A stretch of DNA of 64,000 bases. Source: Escherichia phage AV126. The notes under the pieces were generated by a model, which was not told the origin of the DNA, searched no databases, and saw only the letters and a program-made list of their open reading frames with translations. Location of the stretch: the sequence record OR352956.1; one strand, given 5' to 3'. How positions within the stretch are numbered: the stretch's first letter is position 1; each line of letters starts with the position of its first letter. This document shows positions 2,664-58,861 of the stretch, piece after piece. The position numbers and the translations under genes are program-made.

Positions 2664-4256
2664 TTAACGATCCTCTCTGATTTGATTAATCTTACGAGCA
2701 AGGGCAGCTATAAGCTTATCTTCTTCAGATACAGGAGCCGTGCTCTTACCTAAACGATGCATGTCTAAAATCTCTTGAACAGTCCGGTTCCATTGCAGAC
2801 ATTTAATACAACGTGTATGTGCAACATACAGAAGATTTCGTTCTGATTCTTCAAGACCTACCCACTCACCCTTCTTATCATAATTAGAAGGGAAGTCATT
2901 TGCAACAATAACCTGATCCCATTCCAAACCTTTTGATTTGTGGGCTGTAGTTAAAGTAACTTTAGCCGTTGGAGAGTTACGGTGCATACGTAAAGTGTAT
3001 GCAATATTATTAGCTTTACCAGAAACAACGATGTTTAAAAGTCGTTTTGCATCAGGATCTGATTCTGCACACTCTACAAATTCTTCCCAAGAAGTGTAAG
3101 GGAGAACTGTCTCATGCTTAACTTTGTCCAAATCACCTCTACGTAAAGCATTAACACTATCAACCATAGAAATGAAATCTTTGGTATCTACGTTAATAAT
3201 AATCTCTTCTCCGTTAGCGATTCGGTCCATAGCTTCGAGCAACAAAGTCAAATTCTTACGGAAAATAATAGTGTAAGGTTTACTATAATCTACCACATCA
3301 GAATGAAAACTTCCAGTGACAGTATCATAACCTTTGCCTACCAACGGATGCTTCAGAGGTGAGCGATCAGAAAGGATCGCATTAGCAATGTCCGCAACTT
3401 TAGGACCAAAGCGAAAACAAGCTGTCAGAGGCAACTCAACCCCATATGTAGCTGTTTGCTTCATCATGTTCTGGCTTCCACGGAACTGATAAATACTCTG
3501 AAATTCATCACCCACAACAACAATACGTTTAGCCGATTTAGCATTGCGAAGGATAGACAGGAATGCAGGGTTAACATCCTGGAATTCATCTCCAAAAATA
3601 ATATCGTATCCTAAGTCTTCTTTGCTCAATTCAAAGAGTTTCACATAGGTGTCATGAGTCATAATGGTTTCTGATTTAGGATCAATACGCTCACGCCAAA
3701 GTTGCTTCGCATATTTAACAACTTCATTAATAAGTTTTTGTTCGTTGATGTTTTTACGTTTTAAGTCTGACATGTGCACTTTAGGAAAATGTTTATGTCC
3801 GATATGTTCATCGTCAGAAAACTCATATTTAGCTAAAGTTTGTTTTACCATTAACCCGATCATTGCACGAGTCAGTAGCACTTTACCATTCTTATCGATC
3901 AAGTTCTGAATCTTGAATTTCTTGGCAATCTCACTACCAGTGCCAGCTACGTTAACATATTGACCTTCTGGACGAGATAATTTGTGTCGAAGGTTTTGTG
4001 GAAGACGCTGGTAACAGATAGAATGTAGCGTTCGGCACATAACATTGGGCGGCATTTTACGTCGAGCTTCCTCTGCCATACTTTTGTTAAATGCTAAGTA
4101 TAGAATACTATCATTTGTGCCATTAGCCAACATATACAGCGTTGACGTTTTACCTGATCCAGATTTAGCTTGAATTGTAACGAAACGATTTTCTTGATAC
4201 CCACTTTCAATAGCGTATTGTTCATCGGTAGGTGTAAAACTCAATTGTGTAGACAC
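2664..4256 (-). CDS. UvrD/Rep-like superfamily-1 DNA helicase (530 aa)
   Basis: SF1 motifs in order: AKSGSGKT (Walker A), GDEFQD (motif II), VVGDEFQSIYQFRG (III), TAHKSKGLEWD (V), YVAHTR (VI). Confidence 0.75.
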   Translation of the reverse strand: MSTQLSFTPTDEQYAIESGYQENRFVTIQAKSGSGKTSTLYMLANGTNDSILYLAFNKSMAEEARRKMPPNVMCRTLHSICYQRLPQNLRHKLSRPEGQYVNVAGTGSEIAKKFKIQNLIDKNGKVLLTRAMIGLMVKQTLAKYEFSDDEHIGHKHFPKVHMSDLKRKNINEQKLINEVVKYAKQLWRERIDPKSETIMTHDTYVKLFELSKEDLGYDIIFGDEFQDVNPAFLSILRNAKSAKRIVVVGDEFQSIYQFRGSQNMMKQTATYGVELPLTACFRFGPKVADIANAILSDRSPLKHPLVGKGYDTVTGSFHSDVVDYSKPYTIIFRKNLTLLLEAMDRIANGEEIIINVDTKDFISMVDSVNALRRGDLDKVKHETVLPYTSWEEFVECAESDPDAKRLLNIVVSGKANNIAYTLRMHRNSPTAKVTLTTAHKSKGLEWDQVIVANDFPSNYDKKGEWVGLEESERNLLYVAHTRCIKCLQWNRTVQEILDMHRLGKSTAPVSEEDKLIAALARKINQIREDR

Positions 4257-4270
4257 GTATTTCTCCTCTC

Positions 4271-4786
4271 TTAATAAAAACTCTTGACAATCCTCATCAT
4301 TTCCTTAGCTCTGCTGGCGTAAGGTTCTTTTAGATTAGGTGGCAAATGTGCATTAATGTATCCCATTTGTTTTTCCCATGTCCACTTATCTTTAAATCTT
4401 GGCATGGTGTCTCCTGCTAAACTGTTTTCTTTTCGTGTTTGAATAATCCAATTACATGGAAAATGCACACCACCTTTACGGAAGGGAATATAATGTCCCA
4501 ATGTGAATGCCTTATTGTTCTTTAAACGTCCAGCTAAATTAAGATTAACAATAAGACTACGAAACACGTAGTATTGATAAAGATTGTCAACAGTATATAC
4601 AGAGTAGTATGCTCTAAGTGCATTATCTCTACTAAGATTACCAACATCCAAACTGCACCAGTTTAAATTACTTGGATCGTAGTTGTGATTATCAATCCAT
4701 TCTTCTCTTTCCTCAAATTCTGCATTAACAGCAGACTGCCCTGCTGTAGATACAAAAAGAGAATTTGCATCAAAGAACATACTCAC
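4271..4786 (-). CDS. hypothetical protein (171 aa)
   Basis: ORF co-oriented and tightly packed. Confidence 0.55.
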   Translation of the reverse strand: MSMFFDANSLFVSTAGQSAVNAEFEEREEWIDNHNYDPSNLNWCSLDVGNLSRDNALRAYYSVYTVDNLYQYYVFRSLIVNLNLAGRLKNNKAFTLGHYIPFRKGGVHFPCNWIIQTRKENSLAGDTMPRFKDKWTWEKQMGYINAHLPPNLKEPYASRAKEMMRIVKSFY

Positions 4787-7053: not shown

Positions 7054-7286
7054 TTGTTTTCTCCTAGATCTAAACTAATTAAGAAGTCACGAAGGATGAT
7101 CATTTGTTCTGTAGATAATGATAATACACCTTCTCCATAAATATCACCAGACCATTCAGCAGTTAGATCTAGTGTACCAGTACCAGGAAACCAATCAACA
7201 GTGATCTGATTACCATTAGAGTCAGGTAGTATTTCACTGACTAACATAACACACTCTCCTATTATTGTTCTTGATCTTACGATCAT
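7050..7286 (-). CDS. hypothetical protein (78 aa)
   Basis: ORF preceded (minus sense) by repeat element at 7364-7422. Confidence 0.5.
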   Translation of the reverse strand: MIVRSRTIIGECVMLVSEILPDSNGNQITVDWFPGTGTLDLTAEWSGDIYGEGVLSLSTEQMIILRDFLISLDLGENK

Positions 7287-7363
7287 CTACCGATAAGAAC
7301 AAGTACTTAAATCTCTGTTCTTCGAACATCTAACGATAGAGATTAATCTATTACATAATCTAT

Positions 7364-7422
7364 ACTCGCTATCGCTCGACCCTTCGGGGTTAGGGTAGCA
7401 TATTTTTTGAAAAAAAGTCAAC
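7364..7422. repeat. ~58-bp repeated intergenic element, copy 1
   Basis: ACTCGCTATCGCTCG + UUCG-loop hairpin + TTAGGGTAGCATATTTTTTGAAAAAAAGTCAAC; second copy at 41294-41351 in same orientation; minus sense reads TTGACT-N18-TACCCT. Confidence 0.6.
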
Positions 7423-16626: not shown

Positions 16627-16686
16627 TTGACGTTAACCAGGCGGCGGCGTAGTATTCATCTTATAGGGCGGCAATGGTGCCGCTCA
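16627..16686 (+). promoter_or_regulatory. PeSL-like cassette 1
   Basis: TTGACG / TAGTAT / hairpin GGGCGGCAATGGTGCCGCTC; ORF at 16705. Confidence 0.55.
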
Positions 16687-19901: not shown

Positions 19902-19959
19902 TTGACACGGGAAAGAAAAAGAGTAAACTGTATTACGTAGGGCGGCAATAGTGCCGCTC
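19902..19959 (+). promoter_or_regulatory. PeSL-like cassette 9
   Basis: TTGACA / TAAACT / GGGCGGCAATAGTGCCGCTC; ORF at 19983. Confidence 0.65.
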
Positions 19960-23249: not shown

Positions 23250-23534
23250 ATGGAAATCACAAAAAGCCTAACTAATTATGCAGCACGTCGCGGATTATGT
23301 TTAACCGTTGAAAACTTAGGGAAAGAAGACTTTTTGTGTTTTTGGGAGCTTGAAAATGATTGCGAGTGGATGTTTTCCTATTCTATCTGCGAAGATCAAA
23401 ACGGTTGTTTGTTAACCTGGCGCGGTAATATCTATTTACCGGAAGAAATTAAAGAAGAGTTACCAGGTACAATCATGACAGAGAGACAGCTTAAGGAAGT
23501 GATCAATTTTGTAGGGCAAAACATTAAAAAATAA
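23250..23534 (+). CDS. hypothetical protein (94 aa)
   Basis: ATG at 23250 after GAGAGAAAAA downstream of cassette. Confidence 0.5.
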   Translation: MEITKSLTNYAARRGLCLTVENLGKEDFLCFWELENDCEWMFSYSICEDQNGCLLTWRGNIYLPEEIKEELPGTIMTERQLKEVINFVGQNIKK

Positions 23535-28190: not shown

Positions 28191-28529
28191 CATGATATTT
28201 GGGAATTGTCGCTGCGTGGACCTGACGGCCCGAAAATTCGCGTTAAGCACTTCTTACGTATGCGCCATGATTTTTGCCATATCATATTGATTCTATTAGA
28301 TATTCTTGCCATGATTGCCATGAAACAGGGTGTCCCGAAATAATCTCTCCCCGTAGATATTTTGGGTTACTTTTTATACAAGAGTGGGGTGTCAAAAATA
28401 ATCGGTATATATGGGATAATTGATAGGAATCCCCTATGATAATTCGATTGTAATTCCCTAAGATTGATCGTATGATGTTGGTGATTGATGATTGCCATGA
28501 AAGATGGCTAACGATGAGAGGAGATTATC

Positions 28530-28898
28530 ATGCAAGAGAGTAAAAATATTCCGTTGAGCAGTGCAGCATTGATTCAATTCTACAAAGCATGGATGGCTGA
28601 TCACTACAGCATGGATCGCACGGAGAATGGACTGTGTTTATGTATTCATCATTTTGTGCGATCTCATCTTATGAAAGATGTGGAGAATCCCCGATGGTAT
28701 GCCGACATAATAGATAGCTTGTTGTTTGAGATGCGTGCTCAGTTCAAAGACGCTGGCATTGATACGTGCGCACCCTTCAACACTGGATATGCGGATTACT
28801 TGATTGAAGTGGAAGATAAAATGTGTCACCTGAATCCACTTCGCATTCAGTGGGTGAAAGATCGCATTGAAGATGCAAATAATGCTTGCATTGAATAA
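28530..28898 (+). CDS. paralogous family A protein, copy 1 (122 aa)
   Basis: GAGAGGAG SD; shares FY..W..GLC..PF..H.N..R..WVKDR pattern with ORFs at 31968, 35294, 38592, 39897. Confidence 0.6.
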   Translation: MQESKNIPLSSAALIQFYKAWMADHYSMDRTENGLCLCIHHFVRSHLMKDVENPRWYADIIDSLLFEMRAQFKDAGIDTCAPFNTGYADYLIEVEDKMCHLNPLRIQWVKDRIEDANNACIE

Positions 28899-28968
28899 AA
28901 ATGTCTGTATGATGTTTGTATAAGATATGCAATACCGCGCATAACAAACAGCTAATGAGGAGATTGGA

Positions 28969-29199
28969 ATGCATAGCATGAAACGCATGAAAATTCGTAT
29001 TGAGAATGATGGTGGTTATAAAGGATTGGCACATGCAAAATTTCCACTTGTGCTGGAAGCTACGGTGGAATACAGTGGGCTTGCTCATGTGCGATTCTCG
29101 AAGATGATGGAAGTGCAGGAATGGTTTTGGGACGAGATAGATGCACGAGAAGGAGAAGATTATGTTTTCTTTCCTCACGAATATGAAATTATCTATTAA
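28969..29199 (+). CDS. paralogous family B protein, copy 1 (76 aa)
   Basis: Shares E.W.W.E....EG.DYVFF motif with ORF 32678..32899. Confidence 0.5.
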   Translation: MHSMKRMKIRIENDGGYKGLAHAKFPLVLEATVEYSGLAHVRFSKMMEVQEWFWDEIDAREGEDYVFFPHEYEIIY

Positions 29200-34949: not shown

Positions 34950-35294
34950 ATGATTAAACTTTTATGTGCAGAGTCTTCTGTCGAGTTCCTTAAAGAGGGT
35001 AAGCAGTATCTAGCTTCCCAAGTTATAGATAATCCAGGTTTGTTTTATATTACAGACGAAGAAGGGGATACCCTGTGTATCTCTTTGATTATGGATTGTG
35101 GTCGGTTTCATGTAATTGAGGATGACACTATTCGTCTCTTTGAGGTTTCCTACACAAAAGACAATGGTCCTGTCCGTAAATATCAAATTCCCGCAAAATC
35201 CGCCTTTAACGCATGTGTACGATTAGGTCAAATCTACGGGGACGATAAAGATTGTCGTGAAGACGTGTTTATCAATGTGATCGAGGTAAAATAA
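34950..35294 (+). CDS. hypothetical protein (114 aa)
   Basis: AAGGAGAGAAAA SD. Confidence 0.55.
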   Translation: MIKLLCAESSVEFLKEGKQYLASQVIDNPGLFYITDEEGDTLCISLIMDCGRFHVIEDDTIRLFEVSYTKDNGPVRKYQIPAKSAFNACVRLGQIYGDDKDCREDVFINVIEVK

Positions 35295-35620
35295 TGAAAA
35301 CAAGTAAAGATTTGATGGAGTTTTATAAAATTTATCTAGCATGGATTGATGTTGGTGCTCCTGATGGTAAACCTTTTCGGCGGGATTGTGGTTTGTGTGC
35401 CAACTTGTTCGATTATGTGCACAGAGGTAATTACAACCCCATTATAACAACCTTATCAGATGAAATGCACGCACAGTTTTACCATAAAAGGTTGAATCAA
35501 GGACTCCCTTTCAATGAGAACTACGATGCATATGTCTTAGAGTCAGATGCAGATGCCTGTCACCTGAACGTGGACAGAATTAATTGGGTAAGAGATCGTA
35601 TTGCAGAGGAGGATGAATAA
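35294..35620 (+). CDS. paralogous family A protein, copy 3 (108 aa)
   Basis: Family A motif. Confidence 0.6.
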   Translation: MKTSKDLMEFYKIYLAWIDVGAPDGKPFRRDCGLCANLFDYVHRGNYNPIITTLSDEMHAQFYHKRLNQGLPFNENYDAYVLESDADACHLNVDRINWVRDRIAEEDE

Positions 35621-37228: not shown

Positions 37229-37441
37229 ATGAAGGTACATTACCCTCATCCCTTTGATCCTAAAAACAAAGCCGTAATTCTTCGTCAGTGGCAACGGGTT
37301 TGCCGTACTAAATGTCCAATCAATAGCCCACACAATGTAGACAAGGACTATCTTGGGACATTTATTGAATACACTTACATAGACAAAAACAAGCGTAAAC
37401 AACATGTCGAGGAATACTGCTTAAGAGTAGAATGGCTGTAA
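37229..37441 (+). CDS. hypothetical protein (70 aa)
   Basis: AGGAGG SD. Confidence 0.5.
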   Translation: MKVHYPHPFDPKNKAVILRQWQRVCRTKCPINSPHNVDKDYLGTFIEYTYIDKNKRKQHVEEYCLRVEWL

Positions 37442-37454
37442 ATAATAAATACCT

Positions 37455-37482
37455 TGACAAGTGTTTATTCGTTTTGTAAAGT
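37455..37482 (+). promoter_or_regulatory. sigma70-like promoter for serine recombinase
   Basis: TTGACA - 16 nt - TAAAGT, ~30 nt upstream of ATG 37512. Confidence 0.55.
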
Positions 37483-37511
37483 GAGAATACAGCAATGGTT
37501 TAGGAGTGGTT

Positions 37512-38183
37512 ATGAAAAAGTTTGTTGTTTACAGTCGTCTTTCTAAACAGAAAAAAGGTGAGGCACAATATGGTATGGAGAGCCAAGAGAATGATATCCG
37601 TTACTTCTTAGACTCTGTGCCTGATGCGGAAGTTATTGGTCAATTTTCTGAATACTATTCGGGTAAGGGTGATTGGAAGCAACGTAAGGAACTGGTTAAA
37701 GCGGTTGAAATGTGTAAAGCTACCGGAGCAACTTTATTGGTAGCTAAAGTTGACCGCTTGGGTCGTAACAACGCCTCCGTAGCAACTCTTCTAGAAATGA
37801 TCGATGTTAAGATAGCCATCATGCCAGACGCAGATAAAATGGTTATACAGCTTCTGTCTGTTCTGGCTGAACAAGAAGTTAGAGGTATTGCTGATCGTAT
37901 TAAAAAGGGTCTTGCTGTAGCAAAAAGCAAAGGTGTTTTATTAGGCAGTGCTAATCCTAAAACTGCCGCTGCACGTAGAAAAGGAAAAATGGAATACAAC
38001 TCTGTTAAAGCAGACGCTTTTGCAGAGACATTCCGTGAACGCTTGGAGATCCTTAGAGATTTAAATACACCTTACAAAACTATTGCTGAAAAATTCAATA
38101 GTAAGAAAATAGCAACAGCACGTGGTGGTAAATGGGATGCTAAAACTGTTTCTCGTTTGTGTGCCAGACTGAACATTAAATAG
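37512..38183 (+). CDS. serine recombinase (resolvase/invertase family, 223 aa)
   Basis: N-terminal VYSRLSKQ (YxRVS catalytic-Ser motif), VAKVDRLGRN (DRLGR motif), C-terminal HTH-like; own promoter at 37455-37482. Confidence 0.7.
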   Translation: MKKFVVYSRLSKQKKGEAQYGMESQENDIRYFLDSVPDAEVIGQFSEYYSGKGDWKQRKELVKAVEMCKATGATLLVAKVDRLGRNNASVATLLEMIDVKIAIMPDADKMVIQLLSVLAEQEVRGIADRIKKGLAVAKSKGVLLGSANPKTAAARRKGKMEYNSVKADAFAETFRERLEILRDLNTPYKTIAEKFNSKKIATARGGKWDAKTVSRLCARLNIK

Positions 38184-38191
38184 GAGAGGAT

Positions 38192-38614
38192 ATGAAACAA
38201 GAAAATGAATCTGTAGATCACTTAATCATGCTGTCAGCCCTTTTTGCCGGATGGAACGTATTTTTTGAAAATTTGTTCAATTCTGCTACAGATGGTTCCG
38301 ATTTTATGCGCCAGTTTAAACGACGAACTGTTGAGGACTATGCTTTCTATTCAGGTCGGATTGAAAAAGGTTACGAAGATACAAATACAACACTCACCAT
38401 TAAAGTTTTAGATGTGATGTTTAGTGTTATAGATGCTATCGACGAAAGTCTTCCGATCCTAGACAATTGTAATACGAAAGCCTATGTTTACAAAATAGCT
38501 CGTGCTTATGTGTCTGCAAACAGTTGTCTTCTTTCCGCCCAGATTGCCGTGAACAATCTTGCCAACTTGTTCGATGAAGGAGAAACTTTTTATGACAATC
38601 GATTTGAAGTGTAA
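38192..38614 (+). CDS. hypothetical protein (140 aa)
   Basis: AGGAGAGGA SD. Confidence 0.5.
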   Translation: MKQENESVDHLIMLSALFAGWNVFFENLFNSATDGSDFMRQFKRRTVEDYAFYSGRIEKGYEDTNTTLTIKVLDVMFSVIDAIDESLPILDNCNTKAYVYKIARAYVSANSCLLSAQIAVNNLANLFDEGETFYDNRFEV

Positions 38615-38957
38615 GAGGATTCTTTTAGATTTCTATAATAATTGGTTAGAACACCTCCGTCTCTTTCCAAGAGAAAGTGGTTACGCTGATGTTGGCTTAT
38701 GCCGAGGTCTACGTATGTATATAAGTGATGAATTTCGGGCCGAGCATTCTTTAGCATATTCTGTTTATGGTATGCAATTAGCCAGTTTTGAAAACGCTGG
38801 CTTAGATACAACTTTCCCATTTAACACAGCAAAATCTTTTGAGCAAGAGTGTAAGGAAAAACGTTGCATGTTTAATGAAAAACGTGTACAGTGGGTTAAG
38901 GATCGAGTTAAACAACTGGAACAAGAGTTGGATTTCTTCTATGATGAGGCAGAATAA
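38592..38957 (+). CDS. paralogous family A protein, copy 4 (121 aa)
   Basis: ATG 38592 after GAAGGAG; family A motif. Confidence 0.55.
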   Translation: MTIDLKCKRILLDFYNNWLEHLRLFPRESGYADVGLCRGLRMYISDEFRAEHSLAYSVYGMQLASFENAGLDTTFPFNTAKSFEQECKEKRCMFNEKRVQWVKDRVKQLEQELDFFYDEAE

Positions 38958-39845: not shown

Positions 39846-39850
39846 TAGTT

Positions 39851-39880
39851 GCACCCCGTTCTGCGGGGTGTTATTGTATA
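39851..39880 (+). terminator. terminator-like hairpin
   Basis: CACCCCGTTCTGCGGGGTG + TTATTGTAT. Confidence 0.55.
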
Positions 39881-39896
39881 TGTAAAGGAGGCGCTA

Positions 39897-40235
39897 ATGT
39901 ATTACACTGAAGACTACATATTGTATAACTTTTTTAAAGGTTGGTTGAAATGGGCGGAACAAGCTCCTGTCGGAGATTGTGTTTTTCCTTGGGATTCTCG
40001 TCAAGGCTTGTGTCGTTGTTTGGAAGATTGGCTTATAACCACAAACTACAATTCAGAAACTAAGAAATCTACATCAAACAGATTAAAAATGTTATTTGAA
40101 GAAGATGGTTTAGATCCAATTTATCCTTTCGGTGCTGAAAGCTTCCACAATGGTCTTTTTCTTGGCACTCAACATTATGACAAAGATCGCGTAGATTGGG
40201 TAAAAGAAAAGGTAGCACAGTATGAATGGGGCTAA
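39897..40235 (+). CDS. paralogous family A protein, copy 5 (112 aa)
   Basis: ATG 39897 after AAGGAGG; family A motif. Confidence 0.55.
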   Translation: MYYTEDYILYNFFKGWLKWAEQAPVGDCVFPWDSRQGLCRCLEDWLITTNYNSETKKSTSNRLKMLFEEDGLDPIYPFGAESFHNGLFLGTQHYDKDRVDWVKEKVAQYEWG

Positions 40236-40989: not shown

Positions 40990-41192
40990 AAGCTTTTGCT
41001 ATATACTCTACTGTAGGATTCTTTTATTGGATTATAGTTATTGTCGGATGTTGGTTAGGTTCTTGTGTTGTGATGGGAGAATGGTTAACATACAATGTAT
41101 TCGAATGGGATGTAGTTTGTAGATCATTACTTGTTATATGGACTGCTATTGTTTGTTGGATAACTGTTAGTCTAACATTAGATCTATATTGA
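40983..41192 (+). CDS. hypothetical membrane protein (69 aa)
   Basis: Two TM-like segments. Confidence 0.45.
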   Translation: MLKAFAIYSTVGFFYWIIVIVGCWLGSCVVMGEWLTYNVFEWDVVCRSLLVIWTAIVCWITVSLTLDLY

Positions 41193-41293
41193 TTAATAGA
41201 TGGTAGATAGATGATCATAGTTTATCTACCTTCACTTACGTTTCATACCTCACTATCGTGAGTAACATGAAACATTATTATATAGAAATCTAC

Positions 41294-41351
41294 TACTCGC
41301 TATCGCTCGTAAACATATGTTTAGGGTACCATACTTTTTTGAAAAAGTCAA
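41294..41351. repeat. ~58-bp repeated intergenic element, copy 2
   Basis: ACTCGCTATCGCTCG + palindrome TAAACATATGTTTA + TTAGGGTACCATACTTTTTTGAAAAAGTCAA. Confidence 0.6.
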
Positions 41352-41552: not shown

Positions 41553-41768
41553 ATGAGTTCCAATTTTCTATACAAAGCAAAAGATTCACGAGATGGAGAG
41601 AACCATTGGTGGTTGATCACAGAAGATGGTGTTATCATCCTACCGTGGGACGGAGAGACGAAAGTTCAAATATTAGAGAAAGTAAAAGGTGTTAGTTTTA
41701 ATGTTAGTCATGATATAACAACTTTCAAAGCTTTTGCTATGAATCCTAATCTTGTTGCTGAATGGTAA
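41553..41768 (+). CDS. hypothetical protein (71 aa)
   Basis: AGGAGGAAG SD; promoter at 41486-41514. Confidence 0.55.
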   Translation: MSSNFLYKAKDSRDGENHWWLITEDGVIILPWDGETKVQILEKVKGVSFNVSHDITTFKAFAMNPNLVAEW

Positions 41769-53600: not shown

Positions 53601-53646
53601 AATCCCTCCTTAAAAATACTCCCTCCGAGAAGGGAGTATAAGTATA

Positions 53647-57758: not shown

Positions 57759-58019
57759 TTACTCCGCAATTTGAGCCATGAGATCACGCAGTTCGGTAAA
57801 ACCGCCTACGTATGTTACCTCCCCGTTCACTTCAGACAGAATTTGTGGAAATGTGCGTGGAGGAACTCCGGTAAGATCAACAACTGTTTTAGTCATTGAT
57901 TCTAAATCGTAGTCTTGGTCAAGACTTAAATATTCAAACTGTTTATTGCGCATGGTTAATAGTTGTTTTGACATTTCACAAAATTGACAGTTAGGTTTAC
58001 CAAAAATTACAAATTCCAT
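57759..58019 (-). CDS. glutaredoxin-like thioredoxin (NrdC/NrdH-like, 86 aa)
   Basis: N-terminal active site GKPNCQFC (CxxC) in glutaredoxin-fold-sized protein; GGAG SD. Confidence 0.7.
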   Translation of the reverse strand: MEFVIFGKPNCQFCEMSKQLLTMRNKQFEYLSLDQDYDLESMTKTVVDLTGVPPRTFPQILSEVNGEVTYVGGFTELRDLMAQIAE

Positions 58020-58861
58020 TACCTCTCCTTATTAAGTAATACTGCTAAAGACTGTTCAATACCTTTATTTAAATCTGATTTTGTAAGATAGTGACTGGTT
58101 ACTAGTTGTGACTTCACCGGACGTGCTGCTGGAGCATTATAGGTTGAAGCTGATACCGCCGATATCTTAACAGGTTCTGGCATCTGTGTCAAGATCTTTT
58201 CCGCAAACTCCGCCCAAGAAATAAGATGGCTTCCTGCAAAATGGTAAGTCTTAACAGATCTTGACCAACCTGTTTTTAATACTTCAAAAATAGCTTCTGC
58301 TAAATCTGGGGCATATGTTGGACAAGAGAACTGATCAGCAACAATAATAAAATCACGTTGTCCATCATTATAGCGAGACAACATGGTTTTTAGAAAGTTA
58401 TTTCCAAATTCGCTATATACCGAGGCTGTTCGAATAATATATGCATTTGGGTTAACTCCTCGCACCATTTTTTCACCAAGTTCTTTCGTATACCCATAAT
58501 TGTTTATTGGGTTAGGTGTAGTATCTTCAAAAATAGGATGAGAATAATTAAAAATATAGTCTGTAGAAATATGCACAAAATCAATTTTAAGTTTGCTGCA
58601 CACTGCCGCAATATTTGCAGGTCCATACGCATTAACAGCCAAAGCAGTAGCAAATTCATGTTCTGCTTTATCTACCGCCGTATAAGCGGCGCAATTAATA
58701 ACACCATCTACATAATCTTCAACAATAGCGTTTCGCACAGCTTCAAAATTTGTAATATCTACACGTTCTTTAGGATAAATTAAAGATACATTTGCAGGGG
58801 CAACTTTACGTAAAGCTTGTCCCAGTTGTCCATTACCACCCAATACCAAATATGTTAGCAT
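58019..58861 (-). CDS. rmlD: dTDP-4-dehydrorhamnose reductase (RmlD, 280 aa)
   Basis: N-terminal Rossmann LVLGGNGQLGQAL; size and operon position after rmlC. Confidence 0.75.
   Translation of the reverse strand: MLTYLVLGGNGQLGQALRKVAPANVSLIYPKERVDITNFEAVRNAIVEDYVDGVINCAAYTAVDKAEHEFATALAVNAYGPANIAAVCSKLKIDFVHISTDYIFNYSHPIFEDTTPNPINNYGYTKELGEKMVRGVNPNAYIIRTASVYSEFGNNFLKTMLSRYNDGQRDFIIVADQFSCPTYAPDLAEAIFEVLKTGWSRSVKTYHFAGSHLISWAEFAEKILTQMPEPVKISAVSASTYNAPAARPVKSQLVTSHYLTKSDLNKGIEQSLAVLLNKER

Follow-up and report, generated by a model that had tools for sequence, protein, structure and literature searches.

A serine recombinase gene and a repeated promoter-like element in Escherichia phage AV126

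A 64,000-nucleotide stretch of Escherichia phage AV126 (OR352956.1), referred to here as the window, encodes a serine recombinase of 223 amino acids on the plus strand at 37512-38183, the counterpart of gp216 of phage phAPEC8. The same window carries two copies of an element of about 58 bp, A at 7364-7422 and B at 41294-41351, both read on the minus strand. A first-pass annotation had tentatively combined these features into one recombination system. This observation is partly confirmed: the recombinase and the elements are real, but the claims about the genomic context and about a pair of sites were wrong, and the recombinase and the elements are two unrelated things. We hold the account as a whole, a recombinase together with unrelated promoter elements, with moderate confidence.

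The window belongs to Phapecoctavirus (phAPEC8-like, Stephanstirmvirinae), with 98-99% identity to genomes of this genus; those of the phAPEC8-like members are about 150 kb long. The 3-kb stretch around the recombinase gene matches 64 phage records, nearly all of them Phapecoctavirus, also at 98-99% identity. The source phage is a large virulent myovirus of the lineage related to rV5 and FelixO1, and its description as T4-type was mistaken. Genes in the window run leftward up to about 9.1 kb; small early genes then run rightward over about 35 kb and end near 44.6 kb, with leftward nucleotide-metabolism genes beyond. Positions are given in window coordinates unless stated otherwise; a window position x corresponds to approximately phAPEC8 x - 20885, wrapping at the arbitrary ends of that record.

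The recombinase gene and its relatives

The recombinase open reading frame (ORF) starts with ATG and has AGGAG at 37502-37506, 6 nt upstream. The resolvase/invertase motifs by which it was first recognized, YSRLSKQ and DRLGRN, are both present, and residues 5-142 match the Pfam family Resolvase (PF00239), scoring 66 bits (cutoff 23.3) at an E value of 5.2e-18. Among PHROG families PHROG 125, named "DNA invertase", matches best, and PHROG 95, "integrase", is matched too. NCBIfam contained no equivalog scoring above its cutoff for this protein and gave a weak match to the Mpi master invertase. In an alignment of homologs, counted as 35 or 36, the residues Y7, R9, S11, R58, D81/R82/R85 (alignment numbering) and E120 are invariant, and so are the DRLGR motif and two E-helix residues, a Glu and an Arg. 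S11 is the catalytic serine, the residue on which the first-pass annotation had made its assignment depend. Alignment with the Tn3 and gamma-delta resolvases accounts for every position of the reference catalytic set, which in Tn3 numbering comprises Y6, R8, S10, R45, D67, R68, R71, E118 and R125.

The protein can be divided into a catalytic domain with a long E-helix (alpha-E), residues 1 to about 145, and a C-terminal helical DNA-binding domain, residues about 149-223. An AlphaFold model built on the homolog alignment, with a predicted local distance difference test (pLDDT) score of 89, has the long helix at residues 109-139, and Foldseek matched this model to Sin, gamma-delta resolvase, TP901-1 and Bxb1 (probability 1.00) as well as to phiC31 catalytic domains. 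Profile match, catalytic residues and an alpha/beta fold with E-helix all place the protein in the serine recombinase superfamily PF00239. The C-terminal 75 residues, initially described as a helix-turn-helix (HTH)-like end, are indeed predicted to form four helices; they carry the signature "LN..G..T.RG..W....V.R" and include a weak match to PF07508 "Recombinase" at residues 187-216, covering only model positions 19-48 of 102.

Two features of the resolvase/invertase subfamily are HTH_7 (PF02796) and a Gly-Arg minor-groove arm. Pfam found no HTH_7 in the recombinase at E values up to 0.1, with Resolvase and the weak PF07508 match as the only results. The linker after the E-helix reads LLGSANPK (family consensus LGGA), with G-S or G-A in place of Gly-Arg. 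Because HTH_7 was not detected and the Gly-Arg arm is absent, this ORF encodes a serine recombinase that is not a textbook member of the resolvase/invertase subfamily. Large serine integrases have more than 400 residues, a full recombinase domain, a zinc ribbon, a coiled coil and attP/attB integration; the protein differs from them in its length, in its partial PF07508 match and in the lack of homologous DNA in E. coli genomes. We have high confidence that the gene encodes a functional serine recombinase.

The recombinase gene has its own sigma70-type promoter on the plus strand at 37454-37482, TTGACA-17-TAAAGT, as had been noticed at first; ten of its 12 hexamer positions match the consensus. 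A host-type promoter lies directly upstream of the gene in five out of five relatives examined, whatever the locus, and the recombinase would be transcribed early by host RNA polymerase. A 26-bp imperfect palindrome, AATAAATACCTTGACAAGTGTTTATT, covers the -35 hexamer (37444-37469) and is a candidate operator or recombinase-binding site. It has no second copy in the window or in phAPEC8 at up to 4 mismatches. Relatives carry other palindromes over their recombinase promoters, differing in position and sequence, and no flanking motif common to the recombinase loci of the window, phage alia and a Klebsiella phage was found.

An identical protein (100%) is encoded in 62 phage records. Homologs with 52-80% identity are present in other Stephanstirmvirinae (Justusliebigvirus, Citrobacter phage Tr1 and Klebsiella phages), and those with 24-38% identity in large Vibrio and Shewanella phages and some ICP1 isolates. 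Every member of the Stephanstirmvirinae has the recombinase, without presence/absence polymorphism within Phapecoctavirus or Justusliebigvirus, so a gene that was first thought atypical for its phage is not unusual in this lineage. It differs from the phAPEC8 gene by 3 synonymous and 0 non-synonymous changes, and its ratio of non-synonymous to synonymous substitution rates (dN/dS) is 0.17-0.20 relative to phiWec181 and a Klebsiella phage, values that indicate purifying selection. We found no recombinase-like DNA in 5,426 complete E. coli genomes. The closest non-phage relatives are encoded on non-mobilizable plasmids of 5-30 kb. Since no E. coli genome matched and these plasmid homologs share only 35-40% identity with the recombinase, neither an integrated nor a plasmid-prophage form exists. 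For the distant homolog P0071, whose context is prophage-like, the case for a tail-fibre switch of the Gin type was not convincing.

Public records already carry annotations of the recombinase. The GenBank note for phAPEC8 gp216 reads "putative site-specific recombinase", while other records list a hypothetical protein, resolvase, DNA invertase or serine recombinase. Several records mislabel it as "methionine ABC transporter ATP-binding protein", and the 70-residue ORF upstream (37229-37441) is named "putative ABC transporter ATP-binding protein" in other records. Two published papers declare these phages recombinase-free, and one paper speculates that the recombinase keeps concatemers as single genomes. 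No functional study of the recombinase was found in the literature.

The gene occupies two different loci in the subfamily. In Phapecoctavirus, phiWec181 and Tr1 it is situated among rightward early genes. In alia (Justusliebigvirus) and in Klebsiella phage phi1_175008 it is on the other strand, in the nucleotide-metabolism module, between two small ORFs; coordinates of the gene at this alternative locus are 28493-29155 in relative L008 and 3998-4660 in relative L010. The Phapecoctavirus counterparts of the two small ORFs are separated solely by a terminator-like hairpin, ACTCCCTCCGAGAAGGGAGT, at 53618-53637 on the minus strand of the window, leaving the alternative locus "empty". The ICP1 homolog is located in an isolate-specific island. 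Between phAPEC8-type and phiWec181-type genes the catalytic domain is about 95% identical and the C-terminal DNA-binding domain has been replaced. Nucleotide homology to phiWec181 spans only 37444 to 37945, starting exactly at the left edge of the palindrome, and the swapped C-terminal part corresponds to 37945-38183 in the window and to 2934-3175 in L015. In phage Schickermooser (L014, 2350-2760) several indels of 1-7 nt fall within about 400 bp of an otherwise near-identical region. They lie in the recombinase gene, which they frameshift, and in the last part of the gene upstream of it. This copy may be either a pseudogene or a local sequencing error.

One possible explanation of this pattern is that the recombinase plays no part in rearranging the phage genome and is instead a selfish relocating gene, a domesticated DNA-binding regulator, or an enzyme directed against host or competitor DNA. 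Consistent with this, each of the two loci is a self-contained unit of promoter and gene in an intergenic spot, the ICP1 island is variable and found in only some isolates, and close relatives have exchanged DNA-binding domains, with homology breaking off at the edge of the promoter and where the two domains meet. The possible pseudogene of Schickermooser and the lack of a cognate site pair in the phage genome, described below, would fit as well. Yet neither Phapecoctavirus nor Justusliebigvirus shows presence/absence polymorphism, the locus being fixed and the protein fully conserved; the gene is not bordered by terminal repeats or target duplications, and no homologous DNA was found in E. 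coli genomes; a pure regulator, moreover, would not need every catalytic residue to be invariant. We consider this explanation rather doubtful, though a serious rival to a recombinase that acts on phage DNA, which we prefer.

Anatomy and context of elements A, B and C

The two elements in the window are copies of one promoter-like cassette, read on the minus strand. In A a -35 hexamer TTGACT (7421-7416) is followed by TGC (7400-7398) and a -10 hexamer TACCCT (7397-7392), and the downstream part at 7364-7390 consists of a hairpin (7390-7379) and a box, CGAGCGATAGCGAGT (7378-7364). Element B has TTGACT at 41351-41346, TGG at 41331-41329 and TACCCT at 41328-41323, with a palindrome (41322-41310) and the box (41309-41295) in its downstream part at 41295-41322. 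When all of phAPEC8 was scanned, a third copy, C, was found at phAPEC8 57861-57918, which is outside the window and opposite to A and B in orientation. The positions and the shared orientation first reported for A and B are correct, but the two elements do not form a pair.

The 15-mer ACTCGCTATCGCTCG occurs exactly twice in the window, at 7364 and 41295. At up to 3 mismatches it has 3 matches in the window against 0.32 expected, a number reached in one of 100 shuffled sequences. It is followed by a variable stretch of 11-12 nt and then by TTAGGGTA(G/C)CATA...GTCAA, with one indel between the copies. No element copies beyond A and B were found in the 64-kb window. On the other strand, A, B and C all read TTGACT, 14-15 nt, TGn, TACCCTA, about 12 nt and CGAGCG(N1-3)AGCGAG(T). 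This layout corresponds to a -35 hexamer, 17-18 bp of spacing, an extended -10 with TAnnnT, and a conserved box at about +8 to +22.

Viral contigs in IMG/VR were searched with a pattern that included only the -10 and the box and did not require a -35. TTGACT was found 17-18 bp upstream, together with TGn, in every Stephanstirmvirinae-like match; B copies of the Justusliebigvirus type have TTTTAC in place of TTGACT. Comparison of 12 copies from 5 genomes showed that only the promoter hexamers, TGn and the box are conserved, while the spacer and the sequences after the -10 vary. Hairpins of differing sequence follow the -10 in many copies (ACCC-CGAA-GGGT, CAC-GAA-GTG, ACCT-GAA-AGGT, AAAC-ATAT-GTTT). 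All characteristics of a sigma70 extended -10 promoter, that is a -35, 17 +/- 1 bp, TGn, TAnnnT and a variable spacer, are found in the elements. About 28 small IMG/VR contigs with TACCCTA-N10-CGAGCGNAGCGAG were rejected as an unrelated sequence family lacking the -35. The members of this family (L016-L050, 4-60 kb) share TACCCTATCCCCCCC(A/T)ACGAGCG(A/G/C)AGCGAG in a different context, which is probably a coincidence.

Co-oriented genes are present downstream of A and C, as also seen in a divergent IMG/VR genome, and genes with ribosome-binding sites begin 115-250 nt downstream of both. Element A is directed at a leftward gene starting near 7247. Element C occupies a divergent intergenic region ahead of gp005, tRNA genes and late genes. 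Element B faces leftward, with early genes on either side that run rightward and are thus antisense to it; neither a minus-strand ORF nor a terminator was found downstream of it. Its antisense placement is kept in Justusliebigvirus, where the orthologous copy is located upstream of the homolog of o41553, the gene starting at 41553.

Taken as a group, A, B and C are likely to be promoter cassettes rather than recombination sites. The promoter-type conservation across genera supports what the first-pass annotation had offered as a fallback, shared promoter or regulatory elements. Copy A is predicted to drive the leftward replication module and copy C the gp005/tRNA side of the other divergent region, while copy B would fire antisense into the early region. 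By its architecture the cassette represents a second promoter class beside the early elements of the phage, which are of the PeSL ("promoter early stem loop") type. In PeSL cassettes, known from T4-type and rV5-like phages, a small stem-loop lies behind a host-type promoter. The early promoters annotated in phAPEC8 are laid out in this way, with a -10 of TAnAAT and the hairpin GGGCGGCAATGGTGCCGC.

Repeats located next to the elements could point to a different function. A cluster of TAGAT/ATCTA motifs just downstream of B (41101-41300; 8 in 200 bp) is the densest in the 64-kb window, and another downstream of A (7161-7360; 6 in 200 bp) is the second densest. The two clusters are also the densest 200-bp stretches of phAPEC8, with 7-8 and 5-6 motifs compared to about 0.5 expected and a background of 2.5 per kb. 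These motifs often occur as TAGATCTA. Downstream of C (L003 7861-8160, equal to phAPEC8 57861-58160) five GTACT repeats, a stretch of about 50 bp of nearly pure A/T and more GTAC-containing repeats precede gp005, and this region resembles an origin or a complex control region. In three Danish records it is annotated as a "repeat_region".

Origins of T4 and T7 combine a promoter with an AT-rich unwinding element, and A, B and C could accordingly be replication origins or R-loop primer promoters, and not gene promoters. The number of three copies per genome, the absence of a co-oriented gene at B, and the repeats just described would agree with such a function. However, the TAGAT clustering does not recur behind the B copy of Justusliebigvirus, and the genes with ribosome-binding sites at 115-250 nt behind A and C weigh against it. 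We regard an origin function as unlikely and continue to read the elements as promoters of genes.

Several other features of the window were recorded. Early promoters with the hairpin GGGCGGCAATGGTGCCGC, i.e. cassettes of the PeSL type, are present at 16666, 18194, 19940, 21229, 21980, 23211 and 24695. The early region differs from that of phage nieznany by several indels of 1.4-4 kb, and two of the indel block boundaries (near 19946 and 24645) coincide with PeSL-type cassettes. Small early proteins encoded at 35294-35620, 38592-38957 and 39849-40235 are mutual paralogs, which tblastn searches showed to be multicopy in alia and Tr1 too. Scans of the 64-kb window against Rfam and for tRNA genes returned no match.

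Search for recombination sites and rearrangements

Probes of 1 kb centred on A, B and C were compared with public records to detect rearrangements. They gave single-piece, full-length matches with concordant strands in more than 60 records, in which the A-B distance is 27-36 kb. No deletion or inversion ending at A, B or C was found among about 60 genomes. The comparison of related genomes, suggested earlier as a check for presence or absence of the bracketed segment, shows collinear genomes with the elements and their flanks intact. Across the 64 records that match B at full length its orientation is the same, and Justusliebigvirus shares it. Four records labelled as complete genomes, WPEC1, 2, 4 and 6 (PV659873, PV691511, PV682947 and PV763039; 155-161 kb), are rearranged relative to the roughly 60 collinear relatives. 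Breakpoints mapped in WPEC6 fall inside genes or in other intergenic regions and show short microhomology, with none at A, B or C; because of this, the scrambled WPEC records are probably assembly chimeras.

Dyad-symmetric subsites that could bind a recombinase dimer, another of the checks proposed at the outset, were absent from A and B. What is conserved in the elements is the promoter hexamers and a box that is a non-palindromic direct repeat. A res system would consist of two direct res sites with dyad subsites and an identical core, and no such arrangement was found. In three regions, next to the recombinase gene, around the elements A, B and C, and within the tail-fibre module, inverted repeats did not exceed chance level. 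Apart from repeats of PeSL promoters and the A/B pair, a self-BLAST of the whole phAPEC8 genome returned nothing but terminators and a palindrome. Two candidates from phAPEC8, an inverted pair at 23461/28192 and a 26-nt repeat at 1/5495, turned out to be ordinary terminators. The flanks of the recombinase gene have no second copy elsewhere in the genome. Relatives that have a different DNA-binding domain in their recombinase, or the gene at a different locus, keep the same elements. From these comparisons we conclude that one genome copy contains no pair of recombination sites.

The recombinase could in principle be a DNA invertase of the Gin/Cin/Mpi type, switching expression by inverting a segment or a promoter such as element B. 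The name of PHROG 125 and the weak Mpi match in NCBIfam point in this direction, and B faces the "wrong" way, such that it would face the rightward genes from 41553 if inverted. An invertase system has inverted repeats flanking its segment and orientation variants among genomes. No significant inverted repeats were detected in the three regions named above, those found genome-wide comprise only one PeSL-type promoter copy, terminators and a palindrome, and all records, for B the 64 and Justusliebigvirus, share a single orientation. With HTH_7 also undetected in the protein, an invertase role is very unlikely.

Resolvases act on directly repeated sites, and A and B are directly repeated and flank the recombinase gene, but the claim that they are res-like sites bracketing a 34-kb early segment for excision or inversion is hardly credible given the third, inverted copy, the unrearranged genomes and the lack of dyad-symmetric subsites, the variable sequence between the conserved -35, TGn, -10 and non-palindromic box where crossover would need identity, the retention of B in Justusliebigvirus though its recombinase is about 12 kb away in another module, and the loss of the early region and of the recombinase gene itself that excision would entail. 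A site for the recombinase needs dyad half-sites and an identical core; since the elements instead carry a promoter footprint, they are not expected to be its sites, and we retain their reading as promoter cassettes.

Possible role of the recombinase and comparison with known systems

Since there is no site pair in one genome copy, the recombinase most likely acts at a single site that is present once per genome. Phage DNA that is terminally redundant or multimeric would carry this site in direct repeat, and recombination would then take place between the copies. Phage Ro121lw, which has an identical recombinase, was reported to be circularly permuted with P1-like headful packaging by PhageTerm (PMC6454146). 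Based on this report, the relatives on small plasmids and the missing site pair, we tentatively suggest circularisation or multimer resolution at a single site, by analogy with Cre/lox, as a role of the recombinase. A broader and less probable scenario is that this strictly virulent headful lineage uses the early recombinase for a site-specific step of lytic replication, alongside a small circuit of the three cassettes, regulatory or origin-related, in which B shuts off the early region.

Several observations weigh against the account given here. Element B is directed against its flanking genes, unlike an ordinary promoter. The -10 hexamer TACCCT is weak, and because of it A and B fell below the threshold of a simple consensus scan, which missed both. 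The TAGAT clusters and the GTACT/AT-rich stretch could indicate an origin or some other protein-binding function. As to the recombinase, virulent phages that package concatemers have no obvious need for resolution, and the frameshifts in Schickermooser, if real, would make the gene dispensable. The search for a recombinase site yielded only the candidate 26-bp palindrome, and relatives whose recognition helices are similar have not kept it.

The recombinase gene triggers "recombinase/integrase" flags in the safety screening of therapeutic phages. Its description as a fixed, stand-alone gene of a virulent lineage, without an integration footprint in E. coli, helps to interpret such flags. The reason why a virulent subfamily, along with Vibrio and Shewanella phages, keeps an intact recombinase might bring to light a site-specific step of lytic replication. 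To the regulatory map of these phages the promoter cassette contributes modestly, in the form of three precise places at which non-early transcription or replication may start.

Among known systems, Tn3/gamma-delta resolvase and Sin are the best sequence and structural matches of the recombinase in the Protein Data Bank (PDB), sharing the catalytic fold, the catalytic residues and the long E-helix. The palindrome overlapping the recombinase promoter is reminiscent of autoregulation at res. In contrast to these resolvases, the recombinase has no detected HTH_7 and no Gly-Arg arm, no three-subsite res was found for it, and it is without a transposon or plasmid context and a second site in cis. 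Gin of Mu, Cin of P1 and Hin are small serine recombinases that, as here, include phage enzymes, and the name "DNA invertase" of PHROG 125 is shared with them. They differ in having a C-terminal domain of another type, whereas the adjacent invertible segment and flanking inverted repeats that go with them are missing here, and about 60 genomes show no orientation polymorphism.

The phiC31, Bxb1 and TP901-1 integrases have the N-terminal pattern YxRxS...Q...G.S..Q in common with the recombinase, and its C-terminal HTH, "LN..G..T.RG..W....V", resembles the start of the "recombinase domain" of large serine integrases. At 223 residues it is without the rest of that domain, the zinc ribbon, the coiled coil and any sign of integration in E. 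coli. Cre/loxP of P1 and plasmid multimer resolution offer a functional analogy only, in which a single site per genome copy would suffice; Cre, however, belongs to the tyrosine recombinases and P1 is a temperate phage, while the role proposed here is inferred. The elements, for their part, are best compared with PeSL cassettes. They differ from these in having TGnTACCCTA instead of TAnAAT and the additional box CGAGCG(N1-3)AGCGAG, and in occurring as only three copies, outside the PeSL array, one of them antisense. Like PeSL cassettes, they have the layout of a repeated host-type promoter with a small stem-loop at the predicted 5' end of the transcript.

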